Assembly (NCBI GenBank): GCA_964395425.1
Contig: CAYNDD010000001.1
Span: forward strand, 63-64,062
Source: an uncultured Frankiaceae bacterium
Lineage (GTDB): Bacteria; Actinomycetota; Actinomycetes; JAFAQI01
Length of the DNA: 64,000 bases
Direction of reading: 5' to 3'
A program made the position numbers and the translations under genes. A model generated the notes under the pieces. That model had not been told where the DNA came from, made no database searches, and saw nothing but the letters and a program-made list of their open reading frames with translations. Below, piece by piece: positions 1,144 to 42,897 of the stretch (the first letter of the stretch is position 1; each line of letters starts with the position of its first letter).

Positions 1144-1272
1144 CGGATCACGAATGATGCGACGGCGGCCGACCGGCCCGCGCTCGAGTAACGCGCCTTC
1201 CAGCCGGCGGGAGCAGCTGAACCACCAGTCGCTGTGCGTCGCGGTGCGAAATGCTTGGATGGGGTCGGCGAG

Positions 1273-2304
1273 GTGATTGACGTGGTGGTATCGCAGGACG
1301 TGTTGCCGCAGCGCGCAGGTGCGGCAATCTTCCTGGTGGCGACGGTGGAGGATGGCGCCGAATCGGATGTTCGCCAGTTGCTGGCGGATCTGTCGGGGCT
1401 GACGAGGTCGGTGGGCTTCCGCCTTCCGGACCGCGACTTGAGTTGCGTAGTGGGGATCGGCGCTGCCTTGTGGGATCGCTTGTTCGCAGGTCCGCGTCCG
1501 GCCTCGCTGCATCCGTTTCACGAGATTGCCGGCGCGCGCCACGTCGCCGTGTCGACGCCGGGCGACCTGCTCTTTCATCTGCGGGCGCACCAGATCGATG
1601 TGTGTTTTGAACTGGCGCGCCAGTTGACCCTCCGTCTAGGTGGCCGGGCGCAGATTGTCGACGAGGTCCACGGGTTCACGTACTTCGACCAGCGTGACCT
1701 GATGGGCTTTGTCGACGGCACCGAGAACCCGACCGGGGAGGCGGCCGAGGCGGCCGCGTTCATCGATGAGAGCGATCCGGACTTTGCCGGGGGCAGCTAT
1801 GTCATCGTGCAGAAGTATCTGCACGACCTCGACGCGTGGGACGCGTTGCCGGTTGAGCAGCAGGAGCAGGTTGTGGGGCGTACCAAACTCAGCGACATCG
1901 AGCTGTCCGATGAGACCAAGCCCTCGAACTCGCACGTCGCGCTGAACACGATCGTTAGTGAGGGCGGTGTGGAACGCCAGATCGTCCGGGAAAACATGGC
2001 ATTTGGTCGGCTCGGAGCCGGCGAGTTCGGCACTTACTTCATCGGGTACGCCGCGGATCCTGGGATCACCGAGTTGATGCTTCACAACATGTTCATCGGC
2101 AAGCCAATGGGGAACTACGACCGGATCCTCGACTTCTCGACGGCCGTGACCGGCGCGCTATTCTTCGTGCCGAGCGTTGACTTTCTCGACAATCTGCCCG
2201 GCGTGCCGACAACGGCGCTGCCGGGAGCGCAACCCGCGAACGATGACGATGTGCAACCGCTCGACCGATCCCTGCGGATCGGCAGTTTGAAGGGGACCAC
2301 CTGA
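1273..2304 (+). CDS. Dyp-type peroxidase, encapsulin cargo with C-terminal targeting peptide.
   Basis: Carries the GFVDGTENP DyP fingerprint. The C-terminal tail DRSLRIGSLKGTT matches the encapsulin cargo-loading peptide consensus (SLxIGSLK). Start is uncertain: GTG at 1234, 1273 and 1285 are all in frame; conserved DyP sequence begins near AAIFLVATV. Confidence 0.85.
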   Translation: MIDVVVSQDVLPQRAGAAIFLVATVEDGAESDVRQLLADLSGLTRSVGFRLPDRDLSCVVGIGAALWDRLFAGPRPASLHPFHEIAGARHVAVSTPGDLLFHLRAHQIDVCFELARQLTLRLGGRAQIVDEVHGFTYFDQRDLMGFVDGTENPTGEAAEAAAFIDESDPDFAGGSYVIVQKYLHDLDAWDALPVEQQEQVVGRTKLSDIELSDETKPSNSHVALNTIVSEGGVERQIVRENMAFGRLGAGEFGTYFIGYAADPGITELMLHNMFIGKPMGNYDRILDFSTAVTGALFFVPSVDFLDNLPGVPTTALPGAQPANDDDVQPLDRSLRIGSLKGTT

Positions 2305-3110
2305 TGGACAACCTGAACCGTGAGCTCGCGCCGATCGCTGACGCAGCCTGGGCCGAGATCGAGGCAGAGGCGCATCGCACCTTCGTCAGGCACGTCGCTG
2401 CGCGTCGAGTCGTCGACCTCGTCGGGCCGTCGGGCCCGACGTTGGCCGGCGTGGGGACCGGGCATGCCCGGGACCTCGACCCACCATCAGGCGGAGTGCT
2501 CGCCCGAAGCCGCGAGTTCGCGCCAGTTGTTGAGTTCCGGGTTCTGTTCACCATCGACCGGCGAGCGGTTGACGACGTGGAGCGTGGAGCCAAGGACTCC
2601 GACTGGCAACCGGTGAAGGATGCAGCCAAGCAGATCGCGTACGCCGAGGATGGTGCGATCTTCGCCGGCTATGCCGCCGCCGGTATCGAGGGGATCAGTG
2701 CCAGCACCTCCAACCCGGCAGTGGCGCTCCCGTCCGACGTCCGCGAGTATCCGACCGCGGTGGCGCATGCACTCAGTGGCCTTCGCCTGGCCGGTGTCGG
2801 TGGTCCCTACAGCCTGCTGCTCCCTGCCGAGATCTATACCGAGATCGCGGAGACCACCGATCACGGCTATCCGATCCGGGAGCACATCGCTCGCGTCATC
2901 GAGGGTGGCGACATCATCTGGGCGCCGGCTGCCGAGGAGGGATTCCTGCTCTCGACCCGCGGCGGCGACTACGAGCTGCACCTCGGCCAGGACCTATCGA
3001 TCGGCTATCTCTCACATGATGCCGACCACGTGACGTTGTACTTCCAGGAGTCACTGACCTTCATCGTCCAGACCAGCGAAGCGGGTGTCGTCCTCACCAG
3101 CGCCGGCTGA
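2304..3110 (+). CDS. Family 1 encapsulin shell protein (linocin M18-like).
   Basis: 268-aa protein collinear with mycobacterial encapsulin: MDNLNRELAPIADAAWAEIEAEA..., DVERGAKDSDWQPVKDAAK, HGYPIREH, DIIWAPA. Its ATG overlaps the DyP stop (TGATG), as in classic DyP-encapsulin operons. Confidence 0.9.
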   Translation: MDNLNRELAPIADAAWAEIEAEAHRTFVRHVAARRVVDLVGPSGPTLAGVGTGHARDLDPPSGGVLARSREFAPVVEFRVLFTIDRRAVDDVERGAKDSDWQPVKDAAKQIAYAEDGAIFAGYAAAGIEGISASTSNPAVALPSDVREYPTAVAHALSGLRLAGVGGPYSLLLPAEIYTEIAETTDHGYPIREHIARVIEGGDIIWAPAAEEGFLLSTRGGDYELHLGQDLSIGYLSHDADHVTLYFQESLTFIVQTSEAGVVLTSAG

Positions 3111-16073: not shown

Positions 16074-16832
16074 CTACCGGGGCCGGTCGATGACTGCGTC
16101 AAGCTCGTCGCCGATCCGTTCTTCCACGAGGGCGACGAAGTCGGCGACGTGTTCGCGCATCAGTCGTTCTGCTTTGGCGCCATCACCCTGGGCGATCGCG
16201 TTGGCAATATTGTCGTGTGCCTTGCAGGTCAACGCTCGCTTCTCACTCGGCGTACTCGGAAGTCGCTCCCGGTTCAAACCGAGTAACGCAGACGAGAAGA
16301 GGGAAATCACCCTGTTTCCGCTCGCGACCGCGATTGCTTCATGGAACGCCTCAGAGCTCCGCAGCCACTCGCTGCCGAGTGACCCGACCGCGCGGTGGTT
16401 GGCTTCGGCAGCCTCGAGCACCGCCGCCCTTGCCTCTTCCGACCCGCGGGTCGCGGCGCTTCTCGCGACGCCGGGCTCCAGGATCATCCGAGCCTCGAGA
16501 AGCTCGCGATATGTAGCTCGCGAGATGAAGAGCCAGACTGAGAGGTTCCGCGCGTAGTCGTCGGCGTCGATCGCATCAACCATCGGCCCACCGCGCTGGC
16601 CGGGCTTGATTCGAATAATTCCGTAAACCTCAAGAATACGAAGCGCCTCGCGCAGGGTGCCGCGTCCGATTCCGAGCTGCTCGATCATTGCGGTTTCGGA
16701 GGGAAGCATGTCGCCGGGATGCAGGTCTTCGTTGACGATGTGGTGAAGGATTCGCCGCGCGATGATCTCTGGCATCCGCTCTTGGCGCGGCTGCTGAAAT
16801 CCACGCTCCATCGGCACCGCTGGACCAGGCAT
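16074..16832 (-). CDS. GntR family (FadR/FCD subfamily) transcriptional regulator.
   Basis: wHTH MPEIIARRILHHIVNEDLHPGDMLPSETAMIEQLGIGRGTLREALRIL, followed by an FCD-type helical C-domain. Start candidates are 16832, 16811 and 16775; the 16955 start is probably too long. Confidence 0.8.
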   Translation of the reverse strand: MPGPAVPMERGFQQPRQERMPEIIARRILHHIVNEDLHPGDMLPSETAMIEQLGIGRGTLREALRILEVYGIIRIKPGQRGGPMVDAIDADDYARNLSVWLFISRATYRELLEARMILEPGVARSAATRGSEEARAAVLEAAEANHRAVGSLGSEWLRSSEAFHEAIAVASGNRVISLFSSALLGLNRERLPSTPSEKRALTCKAHDNIANAIAQGDGAKAERLMREHVADFVALVEERIGDELDAVIDRPR

Positions 16833-17225
16833 CTTGGCCAAACCAACTCCGCTGACGAATGAATGAACGGTGGCGAACAAGGTCGCACGCCCAGTTGCGA
16901 CGACAAGGTTGAACTCCGGCTGGAGAGTAGCACGGCACTGATCGCGCTTTCGCAAACGTGAATTGGCCTCTGCCAGATGGGATTGTGCGGGTTCATCAAG
17001 GTTGCCCGCGAGTCAGACGCACTGTCGCGACGTCTCCCCGCGCTGATGGTTTGGCTGCGTTCCGAGCGCTGCGGATCGGGGCGCATTGGGTTCACGAATA
17101 TTATTTTCGGCATGAGCGATCGAGATTGTCGGCGGCCAACTCGAGTCTTCGAAGCGCACTGTCGGGAGCACGGCCCTCGCACCTGATGACGGATCAGGGG
17201 CCCGAGTTTGAGAGGATTGACCCAT

Positions 17226-17258
17226 GAGGCTGATCATGGTTCGATACATACGCATACA
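17226..17258 (+). promoter_or_regulatory. Copy 1 of a conserved 33-nt AT-rich motif, GAGGCTGATCATGGTTCGATACATACGCATACA, upstream of the BVMO operon.
   Basis: 30/33 identical to a second copy at 22336-22368 in the same orientation. Both lie in intergenic leaders of plus-strand catabolic operons. Confidence 0.5.
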
Positions 17259-17502
17259 AAGGCGTCACAACGCGAGGTGACGACCCGAGTGGCGGCGCAG
17301 TGGTACTCGTTGGTGGCTGCGTTCCTCGGACGAGCCGGACATGCACTGCACGCTGCGACAGGTCGGCACCAAGATCGAGACCTGGAGTGATTCACGTGGG
17401 CAGCACCTACAGCGCGGGGTGGCCGGCGCGCCCTCCTGTATCGGCCCATCGCGTTGCCCGGCCGGGATCCGAGGGGCGCACCTCATGGTTGAGGAAACCC
17501 CG

Positions 17503-19164
17503 ATGACGAACTCACCGGCTCCGACTGCTGAGGCTGACGGGGAGACTACGCACATCGACGTTGTGGTGGTTGGCGCGGGCTTCTCCGGCCTCTACGCGAT
17601 ATACACGATGAGGTCGCTGGGCCTCACGGTTCAGTGTTACGAGCTGGGCGGGGGAGTCGGCGGGACCTGGTACTGGAATCGGTATCCCGGCGCGCGGTGT
17701 GACACGGAGAGTCTCCAATACTCATTCTCGTTCTCACCAGAGCTGGAGCAGGAGTGGGTCTGGTCGGAGCGCTTCGCAACCCAGCCAGAGATTCTCCGCT
17801 ATCTCGAGCACGTTGCCGAGCGATTCGACCTGCTTCCCGCCATCCAGCTAAAGACAAAGGTGACCGCGCTGACCTATCTCAACGAGCGCGGTCGATGGGA
17901 GGTCGAGACCGACCGGGCCGGGCGCGTCGAAGCGTCCTTCGTTGTGATGGCATCAGGCAACCTGTCGGTTCCAAATGCTCCTCAGTTGGAGGGTCTCTCG
18001 AGGTTCACGGGCGAGATCTTCCACACCGGAGACTGGCCTCATCAGGCCGTGGACTTCCGGGGCAAGCGCGTGGCAGTCATCGGGACCGGATCCTCCGGCA
18101 TTCAAGTCATTCCGCGGATCGCTGAACAGGCAGACCACCTCTACGTCTTCCAGCGCACTCCGCAATACAGCGTGCCGGCAAGCCGAGCACACCTGAGTGA
18201 CGAATACGTGGCAGACATCAAGGCGAACTACCCACGGATCCGTGAAGAGACGCGTCGGGCCGCGTTGACGAGCCTGCCATTCTTGAACCGCGAGTCCGCC
18301 AAGGAGGTAGATGCAGAGCGGCGAGAGCAGGTCTTTCAGGAACGGTGGGCCGATTGTCGAGGGGCGGCCCACTTCCTTACCGCCTTTAATGACCTCCTGG
18401 TCGATGACGAATCAAACGCCCTCGCCGGTGACTTCATCCGGTCGAGGATCCGAGAGACGGTGCGCGATCCCGAGACCGCCGAACGACTCTGTCCGATCGG
18501 GTATCCCTTTGGTTCCAAGCGACTATGCCTTGACATGGACTACTACGAGACATTCAACCGCGAGAATGTCACGCTGATCGATCTGCGTGAACAGGCACTC
18601 CAGAGCGTCGCTGAAGGCGCAGTCACAACGACCGCTGGAGCTTACGAAGTAGATGCCATCGTCCTTGCTACCGGCTACGACGGAATGACCGGCGCGCTGA
18701 CTCGAATCGATATTCGAGGCGTCGATGGATCGCTGCTGCGAGAGGTCTGGGCGCACGGTCCGCTGAACTACCTGGGCCTACAAGTTGCCGGATTTCCCAA
18801 CCTGTTCACCGTGACGGGACCGGGAAGCCCTTCGGTGATCGGCTCGGTCGTGACCTCGATCGAGCAGCACATCGAGTTCATCCGGGACTTGATGGTGTAC
18901 ATGCGCGCACGCGATCTCGCCACTGTGGAGGCGGACGAAACGGCGCAGAAGAACTGGGTCGAACATGTCAACGAGGTGGCCAACAAGACCCTGTTCGTCA
19001 AGGGTAACTCGTGGTGGCAAGGGGCCAATATCGAGGGCAAGCCGCGAATATTCATGCCGTACGCCGGCGGCGTTGGGCCGTACCGCACGATTTGTGAGGA
19101 TGTGGCCGCTGACAACTTCCGCGGATTCACGTTCGGCCCCGCCAGCCAGTTCACCGGCCAGTAG
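17503..19164 (+). CDS. Flavin-dependent Baeyer-Villiger-type monooxygenase (class B FMO/BVMO).
   Basis: Rossmann VVVGAGFSGLY, the BVMO fingerprint FTGEIFHTGDWP (FxGxxxHxxxW), and a second GxGxxG, VAVIGTGSSG. ATG 17503 fits the conserved N-terminus. Confidence 0.85.
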   Translation: MTNSPAPTAEADGETTHIDVVVVGAGFSGLYAIYTMRSLGLTVQCYELGGGVGGTWYWNRYPGARCDTESLQYSFSFSPELEQEWVWSERFATQPEILRYLEHVAERFDLLPAIQLKTKVTALTYLNERGRWEVETDRAGRVEASFVVMASGNLSVPNAPQLEGLSRFTGEIFHTGDWPHQAVDFRGKRVAVIGTGSSGIQVIPRIAEQADHLYVFQRTPQYSVPASRAHLSDEYVADIKANYPRIREETRRAALTSLPFLNRESAKEVDAERREQVFQERWADCRGAAHFLTAFNDLLVDDESNALAGDFIRSRIRETVRDPETAERLCPIGYPFGSKRLCLDMDYYETFNRENVTLIDLREQALQSVAEGAVTTTAGAYEVDAIVLATGYDGMTGALTRIDIRGVDGSLLREVWAHGPLNYLGLQVAGFPNLFTVTGPGSPSVIGSVVTSIEQHIEFIRDLMVYMRARDLATVEADETAQKNWVEHVNEVANKTLFVKGNSWWQGANIEGKPRIFMPYAGGVGPYRTICEDVAADNFRGFTFGPASQFTGQ

Positions 19165-19171
19165 GCAGGTC

Positions 19172-20152
19172 ATGACCGCGATTTCCGGCCGGTCTGCAGG
19201 TGATGAGAGGAGGGCTTCGGCAATCCTCCGGGATCCCGACTGGGCGATGGTCGAGCAGAGCCTTCGGTCTGCAGCTATCCCCGCACTCCACACGCGATCT
19301 GTGGAGGAAGCCCGGGCGATGGCTGACGCCGGTGTGTCAACTGCGCTCCCGTCATCGGTGAGTAGCACGGATTTTCGGCTTGAGACTGCCGACGGAGCCG
19401 TCCCGATTCGGGTCTACCGCCCGACGGGCGACGCTACGCGGCCGGCAATTCTTTACTTTCACAGTGGCGGCTGGGTGGTCGGATCAATCGCTACTTCTGA
19501 ATCCTTGGCGATTGAACTTGCCGTCCAGGCCCGTGCCGTTGTTGCGTCGGTCGACTATCGGCTTGCGCCGGAGCATCCGTTTCCCGCAGCCGTGGACGAC
19601 GCGTACGAGGCCGCGATCTGGCTCGCCGCAAACAGTGAGCACATCGGTGCTGTTCGGGGCCCAATCGCAGTGTGTGGTGACAGCTCCGGTGGCAATCTGG
19701 CAACGGTCACCGCGCTCAAGGCGCGAGATCAGCAAGGCCCGGCTATTGGCTGCCAAGCCTTGATCTATCCGGTGACAGACCATGACTTCACGCGGCGGTC
19801 TCATCGAGAGGCGCCGACCATCGGCGGCTTGCTCAGTTCGGCGGACATGGCTTGGTTCTGGGACAAGTACCTACCGGACCGGGATCAGCGTGACGATCCT
19901 CTGGCCTCGCCGCTTCGCGCACCGAGCCTGGCCGGCCTACCGCCGGCACTGGTGGTCACGGCGGAGCTCGATCCCCTTAGCGATGAAGGGGAGGCGTACG
20001 CAACCGCGCTGGCGCGCGAAGGTGTGCCGACCAGTCATCTCCGCTGCCATGGGCTGGGCCATGGCTTTGTTCGGATGCCGGCCGTACATCGGTCGACGTC
20101 TGTAATCGCGATGGTTGGCTCGTTCATCAGGTCGAGCCTGGTGAACGACTAG
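19172..20152 (+). CDS. Alpha/beta hydrolase, esterase/lipase (HSL family).
   Basis: HGGG-type oxyanion motif YFHSGGW and GDSSGG nucleophile pentapeptide. Sits directly downstream of the BVMO, the classic BVMO + esterase pairing. Confidence 0.8.
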   Translation: MTAISGRSAGDERRASAILRDPDWAMVEQSLRSAAIPALHTRSVEEARAMADAGVSTALPSSVSSTDFRLETADGAVPIRVYRPTGDATRPAILYFHSGGWVVGSIATSESLAIELAVQARAVVASVDYRLAPEHPFPAAVDDAYEAAIWLAANSEHIGAVRGPIAVCGDSSGGNLATVTALKARDQQGPAIGCQALIYPVTDHDFTRRSHREAPTIGGLLSSADMAWFWDKYLPDRDQRDDPLASPLRAPSLAGLPPALVVTAELDPLSDEGEAYATALAREGVPTSHLRCHGLGHGFVRMPAVHRSTSVIAMVGSFIRSSLVND

Positions 20153-20246
20153 GGGCCGCAAGCCGGTGCGGTGTCCAGGACCGGGCCGGCCGCCAAAGTC
20201 TGGGTTGGGCGCGGTGTCACCGGACCAGAGATGAGAGAGAGGCCAG

Positions 20247-21338
20247 ATGCGAGCGGCAGTGTTGGAGAGCTACGGGGGCCGATTTGAAGTTGAGGACGTC
20301 ATCGCGCCAGCACTGGGGCCACATGACGTCTCAATGCGGGTCGATGCCACTGGCGTGTGCCATTCGGACCTGACGATGCTGTCGGGGGACGGGTTTCAGT
20401 TTCAATTGCCCGTCATCCTGGGACACGAAGCTGCTGGAGTGGTGCTCGAGACCGGAGCTGAGGTAACCGCGCTCAAGCCAGGGGACACGGTGATTTCATC
20501 GTGGTGCCCACAGTGCGATGCATGTTTCTTCTGCCACCGCGGCGAGGCCTATCTTTGTGAGCGGCGCCCCGAACTGACAGACGAACGGCGAAACCCTACG
20601 ACTCGCGCGGATGGCACGGTTCTTTCGTCGATGGCATCCCTGGGCACCTTCGCGACGCAGGTGATCGCCGATGAGGCCCTGATCATTCCGGTGACGACCG
20701 ACCTCGCGGCGGAGCAGCTGGCGCTCATCGGCTGCGGGGTGACCACCGGATTCTTCGCGGCGCTCAACACCGCAGAGGTCACACCGGGCGCCTCGGTTGC
20801 CGTCATTGGATGCGGCGGTGTCGGGCTCTCGACGATCCAAGGCGCACGGGTCGCAGGTGCGGAGTGCATCATCGGGGTCGACCCGGTGCCCGCACGGCGT
20901 GAAGCAGCGACCGCGGCCGGGGCAACCCACGTGGTGGACCCGGCCAACGGCGGCTCCGTCGAGCAGATCCATGCGATCACGGCCGGCCGGGGCGCGGACT
21001 TCGTGTTCGAATCGATCGGAAGGCGTGACACCTACATCCAGGCCCGAGCGGCAACGATCATCGGCGGGACCACGGTCTACGTCGGAATGTATTCGCACTC
21101 GGCGGCAGCCCTCAGCTTCTCCATGGCGGACCTGCACCGACCCGGCCGGCTCGTCGGGTGTGCGTATGGATCGGCCAACGTACGTACCGACTATCAACGC
21201 CTCATCGGGTACGTCGAGTCGGGCGAGTTCAATCTTGCGGACATGGTCACAAAGACGCTCCCGTTGGACGACATCAACGAGGCTGTCGAGCTCTTGGAGG
21301 CTGGCATTGGAATTCGAACGGTGCTCGTCAATCCATGA
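20247..21338 (+). CDS. Zinc-dependent alcohol dehydrogenase (MDR family).
   Basis: GVCHSDL catalytic zinc motif, the structural-zinc Cys cluster CPQCDACFFC, and GCGGVG NAD-binding motif. Confidence 0.85.
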   Translation: MRAAVLESYGGRFEVEDVIAPALGPHDVSMRVDATGVCHSDLTMLSGDGFQFQLPVILGHEAAGVVLETGAEVTALKPGDTVISSWCPQCDACFFCHRGEAYLCERRPELTDERRNPTTRADGTVLSSMASLGTFATQVIADEALIIPVTTDLAAEQLALIGCGVTTGFFAALNTAEVTPGASVAVIGCGGVGLSTIQGARVAGAECIIGVDPVPARREAATAAGATHVVDPANGGSVEQIHAITAGRGADFVFESIGRRDTYIQARAATIIGGTTVYVGMYSHSAAALSFSMADLHRPGRLVGCAYGSANVRTDYQRLIGYVESGEFNLADMVTKTLPLDDINEAVELLEAGIGIRTVLVNP

Positions 21339-21438
21339 TGACTTCGACCGCGATCCCGAAGCAGCCGACGCCCGGTCGCCGTACGGCCGACACGGGGCGT
21401 GACGCTGGCCTCGCATCGACATCAGGCGGTGGACGCTC

Positions 21439-22197
21439 GTGACCAGCCTCGGCAGGATCCTCGAAGGACGAATCGCCATTGTCACCGGCGCCGGCCGGGG
21501 CCTTGGTCGCGCATTTGCTACTGCGATGGCGGCTGCTGGCGCGTCCGTCGTCGTCAACAGTCGAACGGAAGCGTCGGCAGCCGCCGTGGTCCAACAGATC
21601 GAGGGTGCCGGCGGACGAGCTATCGCCGTGAGTGGCGACATCGGCGAGCCGGGCTTCTTCGATCAGATGGTGAGTGTCGCGCTGGCCTCCTTCGGCACCA
21701 TCGACATCCTTGTTAACAACGCCGGTGTCTCAATCCCCGCGATGATCTGGAAGATGACGGACTCGCAGTGGGACGACGTTCTTCGCATCAACCTCACGTC
21801 GGTGTTCTGGGGTATTCGCGCAGTATGTCCGGTAATGATGGAAAACCGTTACGGGCGCATCATCAACGTCACATCAGCGGGCGGCATCGAGGGTTCTCCC
21901 GGCCAGGTCAACTACGGCGCCTCGAAGGCTGGGGTCATCGGACTGACCAAATCGGCAGCTCGGCAACTGGCGCGGTACGGAATCACGGTGAATGCCATTT
22001 CGCCAGTGGCTATCACTCCCATGACTGAGGTCATCGTCGAGACGCCAAAGTTTCTCGATAAGACGATCTCTCGGATTCCGCTCGGGCGGATGGCTGAAGC
22101 CGACGAAGTGGCGCCTGCAGTTGTGTTCTTGGCGTCGGATGCGGCCGCTTACACGACGGGGCACGTGTTGCTGGCCGACGGTGGAATGTCCATGTGA
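21439..22197 (+). CDS. SDR family oxidoreductase.
   Basis: TGAGRGLGRA cofactor motif, NNAG, and a YxxxK catalytic pattern (YGASKAG). Confidence 0.85.
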   Translation: MTSLGRILEGRIAIVTGAGRGLGRAFATAMAAAGASVVVNSRTEASAAAVVQQIEGAGGRAIAVSGDIGEPGFFDQMVSVALASFGTIDILVNNAGVSIPAMIWKMTDSQWDDVLRINLTSVFWGIRAVCPVMMENRYGRIINVTSAGGIEGSPGQVNYGASKAGVIGLTKSAARQLARYGITVNAISPVAITPMTEVIVETPKFLDKTISRIPLGRMAEADEVAPAVVFLASDAAAYTTGHVLLADGGMSM

Positions 22198-22335
22198 CGG
22201 AGATCGGTGGGAGCGCGAAGATGGCATGGACGTGCTCCGGTATCCGTTGAACAGCAACCCGCAACTCGAGTCTCCGGCAACCCGCCCATGCTGCGTTGTC
22301 CGTGCCTTCGGACTCAATTCCAAACCTTGCCGCAA

Positions 22336-22368
22336 GAGCCTGATCATGGTTAGATACATACGCATAGA
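22336..22368 (+). promoter_or_regulatory. Copy 2 of the conserved 33-nt AT-rich motif, GAGCCTGATCATGGTTAGATACATACGCATAGA, 50-60 nt upstream of the atuA-like operon.
   Basis: See copy 1 at 17226-17258. Contains the TGATCA palindrome. Confidence 0.5.
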
Positions 22369-22428
22369 CCAACGCAAGGCGGGCGACCTCGGGGCATCGA
22401 GATCGCGCTTTACGAAGTGAGATCGATC

Positions 22429-23766
22429 ATGACCGGCAACAGGTTCGTCATCGGTTCTGGTTCGGGCTTCAGTGATGACCTGCTGGATGGGGCCCAGCGA
22501 CTTGCCGATAGCGGCGTCGTCGACTGCATCGCCTTTGACCGGCTCGCGGAACGCACCCTCGCGCTGGCACAGCTCCGTCATCTCGAAGGTGGCGATGGTT
22601 TCGACCTTCACATTGACGAGATCGTGGAACGGTTCGGGGCGTTTGTCGCCCAAGGCGGCAAGCTCGTCGGCAACTTTGGCGCCGCGAATCCTGAAGGAGC
22701 GGCGGAACGATTCGCAGCCAGACTACGGGCGGGCGGCCTGACCGGGAAGGTCATCGGGGTCGTCACCGGCGACGACGTTCATGCCCAGGCCAAAGACTTG
22801 GACCTCGCGCTCCCCGAGATGGGCACGACGATATCCGAGCTCGGCGACAAGTTCGTGTCGGCTCATGCGTACATTGGCGCGGATTCCCTGATGGACTGCC
22901 TTGTGGCGGGAGCAGATGTCATCGTCGGCGGCCGGGTGGCCGATCCATCGCTCTGGGTTGCGCCGCTTTGCCACGCACGTGGCTGGTCGCTCGACGATTG
23001 GGATCAGCTGGCAAATGCAACCCTGGTGGCCCACATCCTCGAGTGCGGATCTCACCTCAACGGTGGCGGATTCTCGGATCCGCCGTTGCGGGAGGTTCCG
23101 GGCGCCGCGCATCTTGGCGCGCCGTATGGGGAGGTCAGCGAAGACGGCTCGTTGTTCATCTCACAGCTGGCCACAGACGCAGGCATCGTCAACAGAGACA
23201 CGATCCGTGGTCAGCTTGGCTACGAGATCTTTGATCCAAGCTCGTACATCACACCCGACGTCGTTGCCGATCTGAGCGACATCTCGCTTGAAGAGGTCGG
23301 GCCGAACAGGGTCCGTGTGGGTGGTGCGCGTGGCCGAAAGCGCCCGGACGAGCTCAAAGTACTAGTGGGCGTTGATCTCGGCTGGAAGACAGTCGGTGGT
23401 GCGTCCTGGGGTGGGCCGAACTGCGTCTCACGCGCGGAATTGGCGGCAGCATCCTTCGGGGAGAGGCTGGCTGGACTTGGTGACGAGGTCGTCGAGTATC
23501 GCCACGACCTGGTCGGGATCAACTCGCTGTTCGGTCAGTGCCTCGAAACCCGGCAATACGAGCCCAATGAGGTCAGGCTGCGCGTTGCGACGGTGACGAG
23601 GTCACGCGCCGGGGCTGAGGCGATTGGCGATGAGATCTGGGCTTTGTGGCGATACGCAGCCGGCGCTGGAGGCATGGAGAAAGTGCTGACGCGACACATC
23701 GGCGTCACTCCGGCGATGATTCCTCGGTCGGCGGTCACCGTGTCGTCGCGAACCCTAACCGTCTGA
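22429..23766 (+). CDS. AtuA-like (acyclic terpene utilisation family, DUF1446) protein.
   Basis: N-terminal RFVIGSGSGFSDD...VVDCIAFDRLAERTLALAQ resembles AtuA N-termini. About 445 aa. Confidence 0.6.
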   Translation: MTGNRFVIGSGSGFSDDLLDGAQRLADSGVVDCIAFDRLAERTLALAQLRHLEGGDGFDLHIDEIVERFGAFVAQGGKLVGNFGAANPEGAAERFAARLRAGGLTGKVIGVVTGDDVHAQAKDLDLALPEMGTTISELGDKFVSAHAYIGADSLMDCLVAGADVIVGGRVADPSLWVAPLCHARGWSLDDWDQLANATLVAHILECGSHLNGGGFSDPPLREVPGAAHLGAPYGEVSEDGSLFISQLATDAGIVNRDTIRGQLGYEIFDPSSYITPDVVADLSDISLEEVGPNRVRVGGARGRKRPDELKVLVGVDLGWKTVGGASWGGPNCVSRAELAAASFGERLAGLGDEVVEYRHDLVGINSLFGQCLETRQYEPNEVRLRVATVTRSRAGAEAIGDEIWALWRYAAGAGGMEKVLTRHIGVTPAMIPRSAVTVSSRTLTV

Positions 23767-23800
23767 GTACTGGAGAAGCGAGTTCATGAAGCTCCACTAA

Positions 23801-24148
23801 GTGGCGTTCTCGAGGTGCGGCGACAAAGGGAATCACGCCAACATCAGTGTGATCCCCTACCGGGACGAGGCGTATTCGCTGCTACTCCCGCAGCTCACCA
23901 CCGATCGTGTTGCCGAGCATTTTCGGGACATCCTCCTCGGTACCGTGACCCGATATGAGTGGGAGTCGATCTCCATTCTGAACTTTGTGCTGAACGATGT
24001 ACTTCACGGCGGCGTGTCGATGTCGCTGAAGCTTGATCCTCACGGCAAGTCGTTGCAGTCCCACATTCTCTCGATGGAGGTTGATCTTCCTGAGCGAATG
24101 AGGCCGGCAACGTTCCCCGCCTCTGTTGGTCATTCGGACATGGCATGA
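23801..24148 (+). CDS. Small DUF4387-like protein, the usual partner of AtuA-like genes.
   Basis: 115-aa ORF with a GTG start, SRCGDKGNHANISV, immediately downstream of the atuA-like gene. Confidence 0.5.
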   Translation: MAFSRCGDKGNHANISVIPYRDEAYSLLLPQLTTDRVAEHFRDILLGTVTRYEWESISILNFVLNDVLHGGVSMSLKLDPHGKSLQSHILSMEVDLPERMRPATFPASVGHSDMA

Positions 24149-25350
24149 GCAATGCCAGCGGCAGCAGCGAAGCCGACCTCGCCGAGACCCCCCAGGGTCT
24201 TTGGGGCGCACTGCGCGGCGTCCGGGTCCTGGAGTTGTGCCAAAACGCCGCTGGCCCCTTTGCTTCCGAGATCCTGGTCATGTTGGGCGCAGACGTCGTC
24301 AAGTTGGAATCGGGGCTTGGAGATGTGAGTCGGGCGATCGGGCGCCCAAGAGAAGGTGGAGTCTCCGCGGTCTACGCCACGCTCAATCATGGCAAACGAT
24401 CTGTGTCCCTCGACCTGAAGCATCCCGATTCGCGTCCCGTGCTTCAACGTCTCGTTCTCAACGCTGACGTCGTGCTTCAGAATCTGCGTCCTGGGACGGC
24501 GGCGCGTCTGGGCCTTGGCGTGGACGACGTACACGCGATAAATCCGACGGCGATCTACTGTTCCGTGGCGGGGCTCTACCCGAGCGAGGCAGACCGTCCC
24601 GGGTACGACGTGATAGCCCAGGCGGAGTCGGGGATCATGGACCGCATCGGTGAGGAAGGCTCACCACCGGCTCGAGTGCCCCTTCCGATGCTCGACTACG
24701 CAACCGCGATGTGGGCGGCTATTGGCATCCTTGCGGGGCTTAAGACGGAGCGACGCAATCTGGCCATCAATGTCACGTTGCTCGACGTCGCAATGGCCAT
24801 GCAGTGCGAAACCATCGCCGCCTATCTTGCAGATGGCGTCGTACCGCGGCGTCGTGGATCAGGGCTCGAGGCCGTCACGCCTCACCGGGCGTTCGCGACC
24901 AGCGACGGTCACATCTTGGTGGCGGCCGGCAACGACTCGTTGTACGGCCGACTTGCAGCAGTGCTCGGTTCACCACTTGACGATGCCCGCTTCTCGACGA
25001 CGAATGGTCGCATGACTCATCGCGACGAGCTCGAAGCCGCGATCTCAGAAAAGCTCTGCGTCGAGCCCACCGCGACGTGGTTCGAGATCCTCCATCGAGC
25101 CGGAATCCCCGTGGCACCGATTCGCGGCTTGAGCGACGCCGTCGACCGCCACATCGCCCATAGTTCAACCGGAGTGCGCCGAGCGGGGGGCTTCGACGTC
25201 CTCGCACCTCCGCTCGAAGTGTCTGGCAACAGGTGGGAGCCGCAACGGGATCCAGCGACACTTGGCTCGGACACGTCGGAGGTTCTGAGTGCGCTCGGCT
25301 TTACGGACAACGAAATCGGCGCGCTCATCGCGAGTGGCGTGCTTGCATGA
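24145..25350 (+). CDS. Family III CoA-transferase (CaiB/BaiF).
   Basis: GVRVLEL...GPFASEILVMLGADVVKLE N-terminal signature. Its ATG overlaps the upstream stop (ATGA). Confidence 0.8.
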   Translation: MSNASGSSEADLAETPQGLWGALRGVRVLELCQNAAGPFASEILVMLGADVVKLESGLGDVSRAIGRPREGGVSAVYATLNHGKRSVSLDLKHPDSRPVLQRLVLNADVVLQNLRPGTAARLGLGVDDVHAINPTAIYCSVAGLYPSEADRPGYDVIAQAESGIMDRIGEEGSPPARVPLPMLDYATAMWAAIGILAGLKTERRNLAINVTLLDVAMAMQCETIAAYLADGVVPRRRGSGLEAVTPHRAFATSDGHILVAAGNDSLYGRLAAVLGSPLDDARFSTTNGRMTHRDELEAAISEKLCVEPTATWFEILHRAGIPVAPIRGLSDAVDRHIAHSSTGVRRAGGFDVLAPPLEVSGNRWEPQRDPATLGSDTSEVLSALGFTDNEIGALIASGVLA

Positions 25351-26378
25351 ACCAGGCGCTCGAAGGCATCCGGGTCGTCGACCTCGCCCAGCAGACGCCT
25401 GGGCCGCTGTGTTCTCGCCTCCTTGCCGATCTTGGTGCAACGGTGATCAAGATCGAGCCACCCGGCGGCGAATGGGCGCGCAAGGCGCGAAGTCTTTATC
25501 GGCACCTGAACTCTTGCAAGACAGTGGTCGAGCTGGATTTGAAGACGCCCGCTGGACTTGCCGCGGCGCGTGAGCACCTCGAAGCCGCGGACGTGGTCCT
25601 CGAGGGCTTTCGACCGGGAGTCGCTGACCGTCTGGGTGTCGGCTTCAACGATGTCGCTGCGTTGTCCCCGCAGATCATCTACTGCTCGATCAGCGGGTAC
25701 GGCCAATCAGGACCGATGCGTGATGTCGCCGGACACGACATGTGTTACCACGCTCATGCCGGAGCGTTCAGCGCAGAGCTGACCTCCGGGGAAGGACCCA
25801 ACCGGCCACTCCTCCCGAATGCTGATCTCGCTAGTTCGCTGTTTGGCGCTTTCATGATCTTGGCAGCACTCCGCGACCCAGATCGCGTGGCGCAGCACAT
25901 TGACGTCTCAATGCAAGACGTCTGCGTCTTCTTGGCATTCAGCCGGTGGGGGGAGGCGTTGACCACTGGCCGGGACAGCCCGGTCGAGGAACTGTTGCAC
26001 CTCACGCCGGGCAACGACATCTACAGAACGGCCGACGGCGAGTACATCACGGTGTGCGCGGTAGAGGACAAGTTCTGGGTGAATCTCTGTACTGCGTTGA
26101 CCCGTCCCGACTTGGCCGAACCGCCGTTCGACAGCACGGCTGGCCGAATGGCCGCACGGACGCAACTCAATCAGCAGCTTAGCTTGACCATGGGTGCGCT
26201 CGCGTGCGGCGATCTCCTTACTCGCTTCGTGGAAGCAGATGTCCCTGCCATGCGCGTACGGCGGGCAAGCGAGGTACTGAATGATCCCGCTCTCAGGGCA
26301 TCTGGTCTCGTCCGGCCAGTCGCCGACGGATATGAGCTCGGCTTCCCGGTGAAGATCTCTGATCGACGCATGAGCTGA
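25347..26378 (+). CDS. Family III CoA-transferase (CaiB/BaiF), second paralog.
   Basis: GIRVVDLAQQTPGPLCSRLLADLGATVIKIEPP. ATGA start/stop overlap with the preceding transferase gene suggests translational coupling. Confidence 0.8.
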   Translation: MNQALEGIRVVDLAQQTPGPLCSRLLADLGATVIKIEPPGGEWARKARSLYRHLNSCKTVVELDLKTPAGLAAAREHLEAADVVLEGFRPGVADRLGVGFNDVAALSPQIIYCSISGYGQSGPMRDVAGHDMCYHAHAGAFSAELTSGEGPNRPLLPNADLASSLFGAFMILAALRDPDRVAQHIDVSMQDVCVFLAFSRWGEALTTGRDSPVEELLHLTPGNDIYRTADGEYITVCAVEDKFWVNLCTALTRPDLAEPPFDSTAGRMAARTQLNQQLSLTMGALACGDLLTRFVEADVPAMRVRRASEVLNDPALRASGLVRPVADGYELGFPVKISDRRMS

Positions 26379-26482
26379 GGGCGACGATCAATGCAGCGAT
26401 TGATCCGCTCGGCCGAAGCACACCCAGCGCGTCGGGACGCCGACACTCGCATCTCAGCGAACGTAGGGAGGTCAGAGAACAC

Positions 26483-28132
26483 GTGCCGGCAACTGTGAGC
26501 CTTCGGTTCAACAATCTCTGGGAGATGCTCGAACATCGGGTGCGTGCCTCGCAACAGCCGCAACTGTCGGTCGGCGGCGAGCAGATGGAGTGGGACGAGC
26601 TATTAGCAACAGCGCGAAGGTCTGCGGTCGTCCTCGCCGATCTCGGGGTTGCCAAGGGCAGCCGGGTTGCAACGTTCGGCGAGACGCGGGCCGACCTCTT
26701 GGCGGTCTCTCTCGGCCTGACCTGCTTAGGGGCTGTTGAGGTTCCGTTCAACACAGCGCTGAACGGAACCTTCCTCGAACGGCAATTGCAGAGTTCTGGC
26801 GTCAGCTTCCTGGTGGTCGTCGCGAGCTATCTCGCGTCGGTCGTTCCAGCCTTGAGGGAAAGCCGGGTAACGACGGTCATCGTTGTCGATGACAGCCCCG
26901 CTGACCGAAGCCTGACCGGTGTGCGCGTGGTCAGCCTCTCGAGCCTGGTTGCGAGGGCAGATGCCCAAGACGCGGTGCCGGCCACGGTGTGCCCCGATGA
27001 TCCGGCGCTCGTGATCTACACGTCTGGGACGACCGGACCGTCGAAGGGCGTGGTCCTCAGTCATGGCTACTTCCTTCACCATTCGATGAGGAAACAGGCA
27101 GACTTCGATCTGGGACCAGACGACGTGCTGTACTCCTGCCTTCCGCTATTCCACATCAATGCGCGGTTGGTGACGCTCTACGCTGCGATGAACTCAGGCG
27201 CCGGCGTCGTTCTCGATTCGCGTTTCAGCGCCTCGAACTTTTGGAGTCGGCTACGCGAGACCAGAACGACCGTGTTCACCTTCCTCGGCACGATGGCGGG
27301 CATCCTCTTGGAGCGCCCGGCCCATCCTGACGAATCCGCCCATACTGCGCGACTTGCATTTGGCAGCCCGATTCCGGTCGGCCGCTACGAGGAGTTCTGC
27401 GACCGATTCCGGGTCAAGGTATCGAACACCTTTGGCATGACTGAGTCGATGGGAGTTATCTTCAACCCGCCCGATGACTTCGTGCAGGGGAGTCTTGGAA
27501 AGGAGATCGCTGAATTCTCGCTTCGCGTCGTAAGCGTCGATGATCCATCGAGAACTTGTGAGGTCGATGAGGTCGGTGAACTCCTCTTTCGGCCTCAACT
27601 CCCATACTTGTTCATGTCGGAGTATCTCGACAACCCGGCGGCGACCGTTAAAGCCTGGCAGGATCTTTGGTTTCACACCGGTGACCTGGTCCATGTCAAC
27701 TCCGATGGAAACTACTTCCTGCATGGTCGTGCGACGGAAAGTATTCGACGGAAAGGCGAGAACATCTCGGCCTGGGAGGTGGAGTCCGTCGTGACCACGC
27801 ATCCGTCGGTCGAGGAGTGCGCCATGGTCGGCGTGCCATCGACGCTTGGCGAGGACGACATGAAGATTGTCGTCGTTGCGACTACCGGCGCAGAGGACAT
27901 CTCGATCTCGGCGCTGCATGCTGAGATCGACCGACTCCTGCCGCGCCACGCCCATCCGAGGTATCTCGAGGTTGTCGCCGCGCTTCCGAAAACGCCAACG
28001 ATGCGCGTGATGAAGCACGTTCTGGGGCGGGATTGGCGCACCCCGACAACCTGGGACTCAGACGTTGGATCCTTCCTGGATCAACCAGCAGACGCCTCAG
28101 CGTCTCGAGATCACAACGACGCGAACGAGTAG
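26483..28132 (+). CDS. AMP-dependent synthetase/ligase (acyl-CoA synthetase).
   Basis: AMP-binding motif IYTSGTTGPSKGVVLSH, plus the A8/A10 regions (GDLV...DGNYF..GR, RRKGENIS). Confidence 0.85.
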   Translation: MPATVSLRFNNLWEMLEHRVRASQQPQLSVGGEQMEWDELLATARRSAVVLADLGVAKGSRVATFGETRADLLAVSLGLTCLGAVEVPFNTALNGTFLERQLQSSGVSFLVVVASYLASVVPALRESRVTTVIVVDDSPADRSLTGVRVVSLSSLVARADAQDAVPATVCPDDPALVIYTSGTTGPSKGVVLSHGYFLHHSMRKQADFDLGPDDVLYSCLPLFHINARLVTLYAAMNSGAGVVLDSRFSASNFWSRLRETRTTVFTFLGTMAGILLERPAHPDESAHTARLAFGSPIPVGRYEEFCDRFRVKVSNTFGMTESMGVIFNPPDDFVQGSLGKEIAEFSLRVVSVDDPSRTCEVDEVGELLFRPQLPYLFMSEYLDNPAATVKAWQDLWFHTGDLVHVNSDGNYFLHGRATESIRRKGENISAWEVESVVTTHPSVEECAMVGVPSTLGEDDMKIVVVATTGAEDISISALHAEIDRLLPRHAHPRYLEVVAALPKTPTMRVMKHVLGRDWRTPTTWDSDVGSFLDQPADASASRDHNDANE

Positions 28133-28536
28133 GTGCAATGTCTCTCCGCAAATCGCCAGCCATCATCAGTGACGACGAACCGGTCGCGGTAGACGCCCAC
28201 TGTCTTGGGAAGAGCTACCGGCGCGGGCCGGGGAGATTCGCCTTCGTGCCCAAACACGAGGAAATATGCGGTCGAGGTGGCCTCGACCGAGCTCTTCACT
28301 TCGACTCGAATATTGGAGCAGATATGGCTTGTGATCCGTGCCGCGCCCGAGGCACCTTCAAAGCGCGCCCGAAGAGCGGCTTGGCCGATGCGCTCTTCGG
28401 TGGGAATCGTCCAAATCCCGTCTTGGGTAAACAGCTCCGGTATCCGGTGTAGTTCGCCCAGGTCGGCAAAATGGCTGTACTGAACAATAAGGTCGTGACA
28501 CACCCGGATTATGTGGTCTTCCTCATCCCGTTCCAT
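28111..28536 (-). CDS. NTF2-like / SnoaL-like small protein.
   Basis: About 140-aa product with the NTF2-fold pattern (SHICSNIRVE..., FVVTDDGWRFAERH). Convergent with the ACS gene, overlapping its 3' end. Confidence 0.5.
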   Translation of the reverse strand: MERDEEDHIIRVCHDLIVQYSHFADLGELHRIPELFTQDGIWTIPTEERIGQAALRARFEGASGAARITSHICSNIRVEVKSSVEATSTAYFLVFGHEGESPRPAPVALPKTVGVYRDRFVVTDDGWRFAERHCTYSFASL

Positions 28537-28659
28537 GTCGCTCCTGGGTGCGAACGAGTTCGAAAGTTTGGGGCGGATCGATCGCAAGGATACTACTTAT
28601 TGCCTTGTGTGCGTTGGGCGCGATCGCTTCAAATCCATCAATTCACTTGAGGAGCCCTC

Positions 28660-30150
28660 ATGACGGAACGCGACGAGTTATCCACCATTCTGCACCACGC
28701 CAGCCAGCTCTTTATCGGCGGCGAGTGGGTTCAACCGTCCTCAACGGCCATGGTTGAGGTCGTGGACTCGACCACCGAGGAGGTGTTCCTTTCCGTCGCG
28801 GAGGCAATGGAGAGCGACATCGCGCGTGCCGTTGGTGCGGCGCGTGCGGCTTTCGATAGCGGTCCCTGGCCGCGCATGACTCCGGCAGAACGCGCCGGCT
28901 ACATGCGTGAGTTCAGCGCGCTGTTGCGTGCGCGGACCGTTGGTCTGGGCCGGATCTGGCCCCGCGAGTTCGGAGTGTTGTATGCCATGGCCAAGAACAT
29001 GGCGGCAGATGCCGGCGGCGCATTCGAATATTACGCAGGGCTGGCCGACAGCTACCCGTTCGAGGAACCGGCCCGACCGTCGACCGGTCAGTACGGCGTG
29101 GTCGTTCGAGAACCAGTAGGGGTGGTCGGCGCCATCATCCCGTGGAATGGGCCCCTCGTCCTGATGGGTTACAAGCTGGCCCCAGCGTTGCTGGCCGGGT
29201 GCTGCGTCGTCGTGAAGTGCGCCCTGGAGTCGCCAGCCGCGGGCTATGTGGTCGCCGAGACTGCTGAGGCAGTTGGACTCCCTCCCGGAGTGATCAACGT
29301 CGTCACCGCCGACCGGGAGGCCTCCGAGTCGCTGGTTCGTGACTCCCGGGTCGACAAGATCACCTTCACCGGGTCCACCCTGGCCGGCCGGCGGATCGCG
29401 TCCCTCTGTGGCGAGCGGATCGCTCGGTGCACGCTGGAACTCGGTGGGAAATCCGCAGCTGTGATTTTCGACGACTTCGACATCACGACCGCTGCCGAGA
29501 GACTCGCGTCCGCCGAGTGCCTGATGACCGGTCAGGTCTGCTCGTCGCTTACCCGAATCGTCGTGAAGCGATCTCGGCACGACGAAATGCTCGAGGCTCT
29601 GGCTAGTGCGTTCTCCAAAGTACGAGTCGGGGACCCGTTCGATGCTGAGAGTCAGATGGGCCCGCTCGTGTCGGCACGTCATCGGGACCGGGTGGAGAGC
29701 TACATCGCCCGAGGCAAGGACGAAGGAGCGACCTTGGCAACGGGCGGCGGACGCCCCGCTCACTTAGACAAGGGTTACTTCGTGGAGCCAACGGTGTTCG
29801 GCAACGTGAACAACTCGCTAGCCATCGCGCAGGAGGAAATCTTCGGGCCGGTCCTTAGCGTCATTGCTGCAGACGACGAGGAACACGCTATAGAGATCGC
29901 GAACGACACGATGTATGGGCTGAACGCCTCGGTGTTCACAAATGACACCGATCGTGCCCGCGACGCGGCGCTCCGCTTGAGGTCCGGCAGGGTAGGCCAT
30001 AACGCGTGGACGAGATCCGAGTTCGGCTTTCCTTCCGGGGGATTCAAGCAGTCGGGCCTTGGTCGAGAGGGTGGCATTGATGGGCTGTTGGCCTTCCAGG
30101 AGACCAAGACCGTGATACTTGACGGCGTTCCGTCGAGCCTTCGCACCTGA
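28660..30150 (+). CDS. Aldehyde dehydrogenase family protein.
   Basis: 496 aa, with catalytic Glu and Cys regions: ELGGKSAAVIF and VCSS in QVCSSLTRIVV. Confidence 0.85.
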   Translation: MTERDELSTILHHASQLFIGGEWVQPSSTAMVEVVDSTTEEVFLSVAEAMESDIARAVGAARAAFDSGPWPRMTPAERAGYMREFSALLRARTVGLGRIWPREFGVLYAMAKNMAADAGGAFEYYAGLADSYPFEEPARPSTGQYGVVVREPVGVVGAIIPWNGPLVLMGYKLAPALLAGCCVVVKCALESPAAGYVVAETAEAVGLPPGVINVVTADREASESLVRDSRVDKITFTGSTLAGRRIASLCGERIARCTLELGGKSAAVIFDDFDITTAAERLASAECLMTGQVCSSLTRIVVKRSRHDEMLEALASAFSKVRVGDPFDAESQMGPLVSARHRDRVESYIARGKDEGATLATGGGRPAHLDKGYFVEPTVFGNVNNSLAIAQEEIFGPVLSVIAADDEEHAIEIANDTMYGLNASVFTNDTDRARDAALRLRSGRVGHNAWTRSEFGFPSGGFKQSGLGREGGIDGLLAFQETKTVILDGVPSSLRT

Positions 30151-42522: not shown

Positions 42523-42863
42523 AACCCGGCTTGCCGATCTCGGTGGTAGTCGAGCCCTGGCCCCGGACGCCCAACCTGTCGGATACGCGGACGTCTGGTG
42601 AAAATTCGCGCCGCTGGGCAACGCAGTCCACACGCACGCCGTGGGTGCATTCACCGCAGCCATGGCCGACAGGTACCGCGTCGTCGCCGCTGTCCTGCTG
42701 GTCGCTGCGGCCGGGGTCGGGGAGGGACTTCGACACCCCGCTCGATGGCTCGTGCCGTCAGGCAAGACCGCCATTACGACTGAGGGCGGGTGAGCCGAAG
42801 ACCAGTCGTAGCGGCGGCGGCAGTGGAGGCGTGGACAGTATTCGTCGATCACGGAGCTATAAA

Positions 42864-42897
42864 ACCAGGGTCGGCCTAGGGTCGCGCCCTCGGGACA
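42864..42897 (+). promoter_or_regulatory. Copy 1 of a conserved 34-nt element, ACCAGGGTCGGCCTAGGGTCGCGCCCTCGGGACA, containing tandem GGGTCG half-sites 11 bp apart. It lies 31 nt upstream of the membrane-protein gene.
   Basis: Near-identical copy at 47694-47728 (one indel, three mismatches), in the same orientation and at the same distance from an ATG. Confidence 0.5.

Follow-up and report, generated by a model that had tools for sequence, protein, structure and literature searches.

A candidate operator for an adjacent GntR/FCD regulator, shared by two neighboring catabolic operons of an uncultured Frankiaceae bacterium

Introduction

Regulators of the FadR subfamily of the GntR family recognize A/T-rich palindromes composed of a TKGT and an ACMA box, usually 3 nucleotides (nt) apart and in some groups 2 nt apart (PMC4494728). 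Weaker extra half-sites lie near such sites, single sites deviate from symmetry, and a few members bind direct repeats (PMC4494728). The operators of PdhR and LldR, which have the form TGGT-N3-ACCA, and those of the direct-repeat binders NanR (TGGTATAW), FarR and NagQ are the described sites with which the present element is compared. We analyzed a 64,000-nt stretch of DNA (hereafter the window) from an uncultured Frankiaceae bacterium (GenBank assembly GCA_964395425.1, contig CAYNDD010000001.1), in which an AT-rich element occurs twice, once upstream of an operon for a Baeyer-Villiger monooxygenase (BVMO), an esterase, an alcohol dehydrogenase (ADH) and a short-chain dehydrogenase/reductase (SDR), and once upstream of an operon for AtuA, CoA-transferases, an acyl-CoA synthetase (ACS) and an aldehyde dehydrogenase (ALDH). 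A gene for a GntR regulator with an FCD domain adjoins this cluster.

In Pseudomonas, the TetR-family protein AtuR is the repressor with operator sites before the atuA-containing catabolic cluster. The window differs from that system in regulator family, operator sequence and phylum, and no TetR gene adjoins its cluster.

Results

Two copies of a sharply bounded repeat

The first-pass annotation of the window had described two same-strand copies of a 33-nt element sharing 30 of 33 positions; both were confirmed, at 17226-17258 and 22336-22368, and no others were present in the window. Ungapped extension enlarged the pair to a 40-nt repeat with 35 of 40 positions identical (Table 1). Within this repeat, a 27-nt core is identical at 26 of 27 positions, and a search for the core with up to 3 mismatches returned only 2 sites in the 64-kb window vs 0.00 expected from 100 shuffles, as the claim of conservation beyond chance had anticipated. 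Gapped local alignment of the two intergenic regions revealed no similarity outside the 40 nt. The repeat thus has sharp boundaries, and chance is far from accounting for it. Its distances to the downstream genes, given earlier as about 245 and 60 nt, are 244 nt to the BVMO ATG at 17503 and 60 nt to the AtuA ATG at 22429. The element had also been called AT-rich in a 70% GC background; it is indeed AT-rich (40% GC over 30 nt), but the background is 65% in the window and 61-63% in the local genes.

For genome scans, the window element takes the string form TGATCATGGTTNGATAC. A degenerate pattern gave 0 matches in 185,579 representative genomes and a metagenome collection, neither of which includes the source organism. 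The metagenome scan missed the JGI contigs Ga0265340_10000839, Ga0265339_10013489 and Ga0265342_10021037, which match exactly, so that its negatives are not equivalent to absence from JGI metagenomes; loci L008-L010, JGI contigs bearing the element, were missed by the collection scans, which are uninformative on the copy number in the source genome. A dispersed repeat or a miniature inverted-repeat transposable element had been named as the finding that would speak against a shared regulatory site, and the two copies in the window, with 0 matches in collections that lack the source organism, favor the regulatory proposal.

A related site upstream of actinobacterial AtuA operons

An AtuA alignment was used to collect 80 loci with 10-kb flanks from representative genomes; the best AtuA matches came from Acidimicrobiia and other Actinomycetota, an affiliation consistent with the MMPL, LAL-type LuxR and encapsulin-DyP genes that the window holds at other positions. 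The lowest-GC 30-mer 5' of AtuA recurred as the same sequence from locus to locus, and about 24 actinobacterial loci carried the consensus site TGAT(C/A)ATGGTTAT(A/C)CTAGAT, of which a 16-nt core is almost invariant. The full block in these loci reads G-TTCCC-N7-TGAT(C/A)ATGGTTAT(A/C)CT-GAT-N(about 10)-TGTCAA and lies between a divergent cytochrome P450 gene and an operon of 3Fe-4S ferredoxin, AtuA, AtuAfd, ALDH, ACS and CoA-transferase genes. Site-bearing taxa include Nocardioides, Planosporangium, Plantactinospora, Asanoa, Lapillicoccus, Phosphoribacter, Nanopelagicales, Pseudonocardiaceae and many metagenome-assembled genomes and uncultured lineages; the orthologous sites of Nocardioides and Planosporangium are denoted by the string TGATCATGGTTATAC. 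A literature search by sequence strings returned no description of this actinobacterial motif, and the searchable literature gave none of the P450/AtuA/LLM regulon that it marks.

Both window copies reproduce positions 1-11 of the consensus (TGATCATGGTT) exactly, and copy B reproduces position 12 as well. In our judgment, an exact match of 11-12 nt in front of an orthologous gene cannot be coincidence. The likeness extends to the position 5' of the orthologous AtuA gene, the orientation and the presence of several copies per cluster, since several AtuA loci carry extra copies of the site before LLM-type oxidoreductase, SDR, SnoaL-like and amidohydrolase genes. These multiple copies therefore point to the behavior of a regulon operator, as do the two copies of the window. 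However, copy B as a whole equals the long consensus minus the pentamer TATAC, and the window form thereby lacks the hexamer TANNNT, which is the actinobacterial -10 pattern. The window form also has a 3' extension of its own and no P450/ferredoxin divergent region, and one of its copies precedes the BVMO operon. A ferredoxin remnant was sought in the 244-nt leader after copy A, ferredoxin being the gene that follows the site in other genomes, and none was found. Conservation at orthologous operons had been left as a check on the earlier proposal; a related site is present 5' of the orthologous AtuA operons. From these comparisons, we consider it quite probable that the element functions as DNA in cis-regulation and is homologous to the site 5' of AtuA in actinobacteria.

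Variant arrangements were seen at other loci. A perfect 34-nt palindrome (CATGATATTCATAACCATGGTTATGAATATCATG) at ~6300-6350 in L095 and L141, between a divergent P450 gene and an SDR gene, consists of two head-to-head ATGGTTAT cores, i.e. a symmetric version of the operator. Secondary sites in L140 (~4952), L143 (~3670), L145 (~3640), L146 (~3277) and L147 (~3550) have a tandem doubled left half, (T)GATGATGATCG-TGATCATGGTATGC, which suggests direct-repeat or cooperative binding at some regulon promoters. Actinomadura/Nocardia loci with a BVMO...SDR-AtuA layout, L148 (9803-9830) and L113 (~9790 and 14150), are without the TGATCATGGTTA site and instead bear another AT-rich motif 5' of AtuA (TGTATTTGTATCCTGTATCC; GGTATCCTGTATACAG), at which a different regulator probably acts. 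The GTATCC-repeat motif of these two loci was compared with the 3' extension of the window copies and appears unrelated.

Comparison with the operators of FadR-subfamily regulators

The orthologous long form has a 3-nt gap and conforms to the FadR-subfamily rule, its center TGGT-TAT-ACTA matching TKGT-N3-ACMA at 7 of 8 positions; TGGT and ACAT of the window copies likewise match TKGT and ACMA at 7 of the 8 box positions. The ATGGTTATAC core of the orthologous consensus occurs verbatim in both the compiled PdhR site AATGGTTATACCAAT and the compiled LldR site ATGTGGTTATACATTTT (PMC4494728). The window shares further features with the PdhR and LldR systems, namely an A/T-rich site that adjoins a divergently transcribed regulator gene and precedes catabolic operons, and a regulator in which GntR and FCD domains are combined with a recognition helix similar to theirs (solved relatives 2DI3, 9JPJ and 5KVR). 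The solved structures closest to the window regulator all belong to the FadR subfamily, namely the LldR-like 2DI3, NanR as second-closest and PdhR, the PdhR structure 9JPJ being a distant match (E about 1e-7). Unlike PdhR and LldR sites, the window copies have a gap of 5 nt instead of 3, ACAT as the right box, and conserved flanks (TGATCA on the 5' side and ACGCATA on the 3' side), and their targets, BVMO, AtuA and CoA-transferases, are unrelated to pyruvate or lactate metabolism. With the NanR, FarR and NagQ group, the window shares an FCD-type regulator and a non-canonical site geometry, and the reverse strand of its 3' half has tandem GTAT units (GTATGCGTATGTATC). However, neither the period of the repeat nor the sequence of its unit agrees with NanR, and the window has no third unit, so this is a resemblance only.

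We scored loci with a matrix built from 20 AtuA-upstream sites, with composition-preserving local shuffles as the null. At a threshold of >=10 bits, the matrix gave 17 matches in 350 kb of GntR/FCD-homolog loci vs 1.3 expected (~13-fold). At >=9 bits, 16 of 23 matches fell within the 11.7% of sequence directly flanking regulator genes. The GntR/FCD-homolog loci with sites encode the same enzyme families as the window. In L052 the order is BVMO, GntR/FCD, site and AtuA-AtuAfd, with the site ~70 nt before AtuA. In L139 a GntR/FCD gene whose product is 41% identical to that of the window diverges from an amidohydrolase-AtuA operon, and CCTATGGTTATACTAGATAC points at this operon; analogous regulator-site layouts occur in L052, L139, L064, L070, L051 and L086. 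Every regulator beside a site has the recognition helix GR[GA][ST]LREALR[IVL]LE in common, of which the window version is GRGTLREALRILE, and throughout the subfamily the helix and the wing hardly vary. The earlier proposal of a shared operator that joins both operons into one regulon, with the GntR/FCD protein as candidate binder, is supported by this motif enrichment, by the recognition helices and by the analogous loci, from which we infer binding.

The closest GntR homologs (48-53% identity) stand in another gene context, and their own AT-rich motifs, AACGAT-N7-ATCGTT and ATCAT-N6-AGATTG, are only loosely like the element. In the upstream regions of 72 metagenomic homologs of the window regulator, TGAT-Nx-ATCA palindromes are enriched. 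A further spacing variant, ACTGATCATCATGTATATGGTTAGG, is found at ~975-1010 in L089, 3' of the gene for a GntR homolog and ~30 nt short of the following gene; like the window element it has both CTGATCAT and ATGGTTAG, but with 9 bases more between the two. The string GAGATTGTCGG(CG) in the GntR-BVMO intergenic region (17122-17132) is also found at ~555 in L007, in the intergenic region of the closest GntR homolog; this 11-nt match is not significant within the window, where near-matches number 32 vs 25.5 by chance.

Form and surroundings of the window copies

As listed in Table 1, a -35-like hexamer opens both copies. It lies 8 nt 5' of the core and occupies the place of the conserved TTCCC block of the orthologous sites. 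Around the center, at ATGGTTC|GATACAT, copy A pairs at 5 of 7 positions and copy B at 4 of 7; the long form, too, is no more than partly symmetric. One other short form was found, at 18803 in L142, before an amidohydrolase gene; the same locus has two long forms. The 3' extension may be a promoter -10/start region or an extra half-site; both are possibilities. Upstream of copy A alone lies a perfect palindrome, the only CTGAT-Nx-ATCAG palindrome in the 64-kb window (0.19 expected), which is nearly identical to CCTGATGACGGCATCAG 5' of a GntR homolog in L026.

Table 1. Positions of the repeat copies, their parts and the surrounding genes in the window
Feature	Sequence	Position	Strand	Remarks
Copy A, 40-nt repeat	TTGACCCATGAGGCTGATCATGGTTCGATACATACGCATA	17217..17256	+	244 nt 5' of BVMO start
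Copy B, 40-nt repeat	TTGCCGCAAGAGCCTGATCATGGTTAGATACATACGCATA	22327..22366	+	SDR-AtuA intergenic, 60 nt 5' of AtuA start
Core of copy A	TGATCATGGTT	17231..17241	+	Positions 1-11 of orthologous AtuA-upstream consensus
Core of copy B	TGATCATGGTTA	22341..22352	+	Positions 1-12 of orthologous consensus
FadR-type boxes, copy A		17237..17249	+	TGGT 17237-17240, ACAT 17246-17249, 5 nt apart
FadR-type boxes, copy B		22347..22359	+	TGGT 22347-22350, ACAT 22356-22359, 5 nt apart
3' extension	GATACATACGCATA	17243..17256 (copy B: 22353-22366)	+	Identical in both copies; not in orthologous consensus
-35-like hexamer	TTGACC (copy B: TTGCCG)	17217..17222 (copy B: 22327-22332)	+	Putative promoter element
Perfect palindrome	CCTGAT-GACGG-ATCAGG	17182..17198	.	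18 nt 5' of copy A; copy B without counterpart
GntR/FCD (FadR-subfamily) regulator, candidate binder		16074..16832	-	Pfam GntR and FCD; recognition helix GRGTLREALRILE
Operon 1		17503..22197	+	BVMO 17503-19164, esterase ~19172-20152, Zn-ADH 20247-21338, SDR 21439-22197
Operon 2		22429..30150	+	AtuA, AtuA-ferredoxin-like, two family III CoA-transferases, ACS, ALDH

Gene context and other features of the window

The gene identities of both operons and of the regulator were confirmed by Pfam, the esterase being an alpha/beta-hydrolase and the synthetase an AMP-binding protein; the nearest homologs of the window's proteins are only ~50% identical. The GntR/FCD gene runs divergently from the BVMO operon and is the sole regulator gene adjoining the cluster. 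In the identical contig L008, a SnoaL-like gene was called on the opposite strand between the ACS and ALDH genes. The gene caller's BVMO of 607 aa, which starts at 17341 and has a 54-residue N-terminal extension, is probably too long. The ATG at 17503 is in frame with that upstream ATG, is preceded by GAGGAAA and leaves ~17 residues ahead of the GxGxxG motif; the start at 17503 was therefore favored because of its ribosome-binding site and the N-terminal length expected for BVMOs. On 9 contigs, a 64-aa open reading frame (ORF), P0256, was called across copy B (window 22226-22420), a call that looks wrong.

Elsewhere in the window, a second intergenic direct repeat of 36 nt (42862-42897 and 47693-47728, 86% identical) reads AACCA[A/G]GGGT[C/T]G[G/A]CCTAGGGTCGCGCCCT[C/G]GGGACA and contains the palindrome AGGGTCGCGCCCT. 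Its copies stand near a LAL-type LuxR gene (43648-46410) and 5' of an MMPL gene (48057-50585), and it looks like another shared regulatory site. The window also holds a pair of DyP-peroxidase and encapsulin (Linocin_M18) genes at 1234-3110, an AbiEi/AbiEii toxin-antitoxin pair at 40545-42316 and one minus-strand tRNA gene at 54640-54711.

Discussion

With moderate confidence, we propose that both copies are the shared operator of the adjacent GntR/FCD repressor and that they probably overlap the promoters of the two operons. The proposal builds on the repeat itself, on homologous sites at orthologous operons and on a motif class tied to the regulator subfamily. In this view, a GntR regulator that resembles PdhR and LldR and belongs to the FadR (FCD) subfamily would have its operator in each copy, probably overlapping the promoter of the operon downstream, and the divergently encoded protein is the most likely binder. 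Without ligand, a dimer on both copies would keep the BVMO-esterase-ADH-SDR and the AtuA-CoA-transferase-ACS-ALDH operons repressed; a pathway intermediate, probably a carboxylate or an acyl-type compound, would bind the FCD domain, and release of the regulator would induce both operons jointly. We infer repression rather than activation because of the usual behavior of the family, the overlap of orthologous sites with the TANNNT hexamer and the -35-like hexamer near the core of the window copies.

Several observations weigh against this proposal. The gap between TGGT and ACAT in the window copies is 5 nt (T[C/A]GAT) vs the reported 3 or 2, and with the ungapped orthologous matrix copy B reaches only 13.4 bits, a score at the upper end of the shuffles, and copy A stays below 8. 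The 14-nt 3' extension is identical in both copies, is not present in other genomes and is not accounted for by a dimer site of 15-17 bp. Copy A lies ~400 nt from the regulator start and 244 nt from the BVMO start, and the palindrome at 17182-17198 may be a second GntR site or the true operator of the regulator. Among the site-bearing AtuA loci, most have no GntR/FCD gene within 10 kb, and for that reason the binder in those genomes might be another protein; ORF clustering at the AtuA loci revealed no regulator family conserved with the site. Furthermore, L001-L003 and L008-L011, which are all the other assemblies that carry the window's proteins, are 100% identical to it in both intergenic regions and hence offer neither a substitution pattern nor a test of conservation within the lineage. 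Because of the short form, the 3' extension, the missing linked GntR genes and the palindrome, our confidence in the full proposal does not exceed this moderate level.

If the site is real and homologous to the AtuA-upstream site, its binder could instead be an unlinked factor, of the Fur family or an unknown global regulator, with the adjacent GntR protein binding the palindrome only. The scarcity of linked GntR/FCD genes and the lack of any co-occurring regulator family fit this alternative, as does a palindrome that is unique in the window and nearly identical to the L026 site. For a Fur-family factor in particular, GATAATGGTTAT occurs in a paper on a Fur-regulated heme-uptake system of Chromobacterium, and TGATAAT-G-GTTATCC resembles what we take to be a 7-1-7 Fur-type box, but the target genes are catabolic and have no evident metal link. 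We nevertheless judge an unlinked binder unlikely, given that matches to the motif matrix are strongly concentrated directly next to the genes of GntR/FCD homologs, that L052 and L139 join regulator, site and AtuA in one place, and that the site center fits both the FadR-subfamily rule and known PdhR/LldR sites. Quite improbable in our estimate is a duplicated core promoter, housekeeping or alternative, that would co-express the operons through shared promoter sequence without a dedicated repressor site. The -35-like TTGACC/TTGCCG would serve such a promoter, and in the orthologs the hexamer after GGT fits TANNNT (TATACT, TATCCT, TACGCT, TAACCT, TAGTCT), with the conserved TTCCC block 16-17 nt 5' of it. 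In the window, however, the aligned hexamer (TAGATA/TCGATA) breaks the pattern, and both strands of the element lack TANNNT throughout. The part best conserved across genomes (TGATCATGGTT) would be the spacer and not a -35 or -10 sequence, promoters alone rarely keep 26 of 27 spacer positions identical, and a scan with the promoter consensus gave a single weak site, confined to copy A, which does not exceed the level of shuffled sequence. Sigma-54, SigF/SigB-type, extracytoplasmic function and sigma-28 patterns were read by eye, and none was conserved in both copies. An alternative-sigma promoter, which the first-pass annotation had offered as a second possibility, gained no support: of such patterns, the copies have in common only the TTG within the -35-like hexamer.

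Both copies can also be read as ATG GTT (C/A)GA TAC ATA CGC ATA, preceded 6 nt upstream by GAGG or GAGC. They would then encode the first residues of a short regulatory leader peptide (MVRYIRI...) with many rare codons, whose translation would govern the operon that follows, either through attenuation or through coupling to the AtuA start. Within these seven codons the copies differ once, CGA vs AGA, which is synonymous; ATA is rare (2.2 per 1000 codons); a gene caller placed a 64-aa ORF over copy B; and the copy B reading frame stops at TGA 22418-22420, which overlaps a GTG at 22417, 8 nt before the AtuA ATG. However, an open frame of 14-24 codons is expected by chance at 65% GC, and a single synonymous difference is weak evidence. 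The window peptides diverge past residue 7, and in copy A 222 nt separate the end of the ORF from the BVMO start. The ATG (17236/22346) falls inside the TKGT box of the DNA motif and is changed to ATC or ATA in the site variants of L135, L127 and L134, and the orthologous ORFs would start MVILD and continue into unrelated variable tails (5 codons only in L105). We set the peptide aside as very improbable because the orthologous sites place the ATG in a conserved DNA box and the peptides are not conserved. To a structured leader RNA, riboswitch-like or protein-binding, or a neutral remnant of a duplication or mobile insertion that brought in the BVMO module, we give hardly any credence, and both are largely refuted. 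In their favor, the 5.1-kb BVMO-esterase-ADH-SDR block has a direct repeat on either side, and copy A is followed by a leader of 244 nt. A leader RNA had been among the earlier suggestions, but Rfam gave no relevant match at permissive or gathering thresholds, and the leaders fold no better than shuffled sequence (z = -0.66 and -0.98) and share no structure. No integrase or transposase gene lies between the copies, their similarity stops sharply at 40 nt, and the homologous sites in distant genomes argue for selection.

Returning to the operator of the adjacent GntR/FCD regulator, the kind of element, a FadR-type GntR operator shared by neighboring operons, is well known; the spacing variant of the window is unusual. 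More tentatively, and at a likelihood that we place well below even, the element could be the remodeled operator of an undescribed but widespread actinobacterial regulon, in which a PdhR-like GntR/FCD repressor would govern a P450/AtuA/LLM/CoA-transferase island; in this lineage the gap would have widened from 3 to 5 nt through loss of TATAC, and with it of the -10 hexamer, and an invariant 14-nt extension would have newly arisen. The island possibly serves the breakdown of terpenoids or branched-chain ketones. If so, the remodeled operator would imply co-evolution of regulator and site, a switch of mechanism (e.g. from repressor to activator) or cooperation with the 17182-17198 palindrome. 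With its odd spacing, the window offers a small-scale natural experiment in the extent to which FadR-type operators can change.

If the shared operator is real, one regulator and one inducer would govern both halves of a pathway, the BVMO-esterase-ADH-SDR module converting a ketone or secondary alcohol to an acid and an alcohol, and the AtuA/CoA-transferase/ACS/ALDH module activating and processing these products. Such a functional link would aid in finding a substrate for the AtuA (DUF1446) family, which is poorly understood. The comparison across genomes is of greater use than the window alone, as it supplies a nearly invariant site of 16-20 nt and a candidate regulator family for a widespread actinobacterial gene island. 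This island occurs in cultured Nocardioides, Planosporangium and Plantactinospora, in which the prediction is directly testable.

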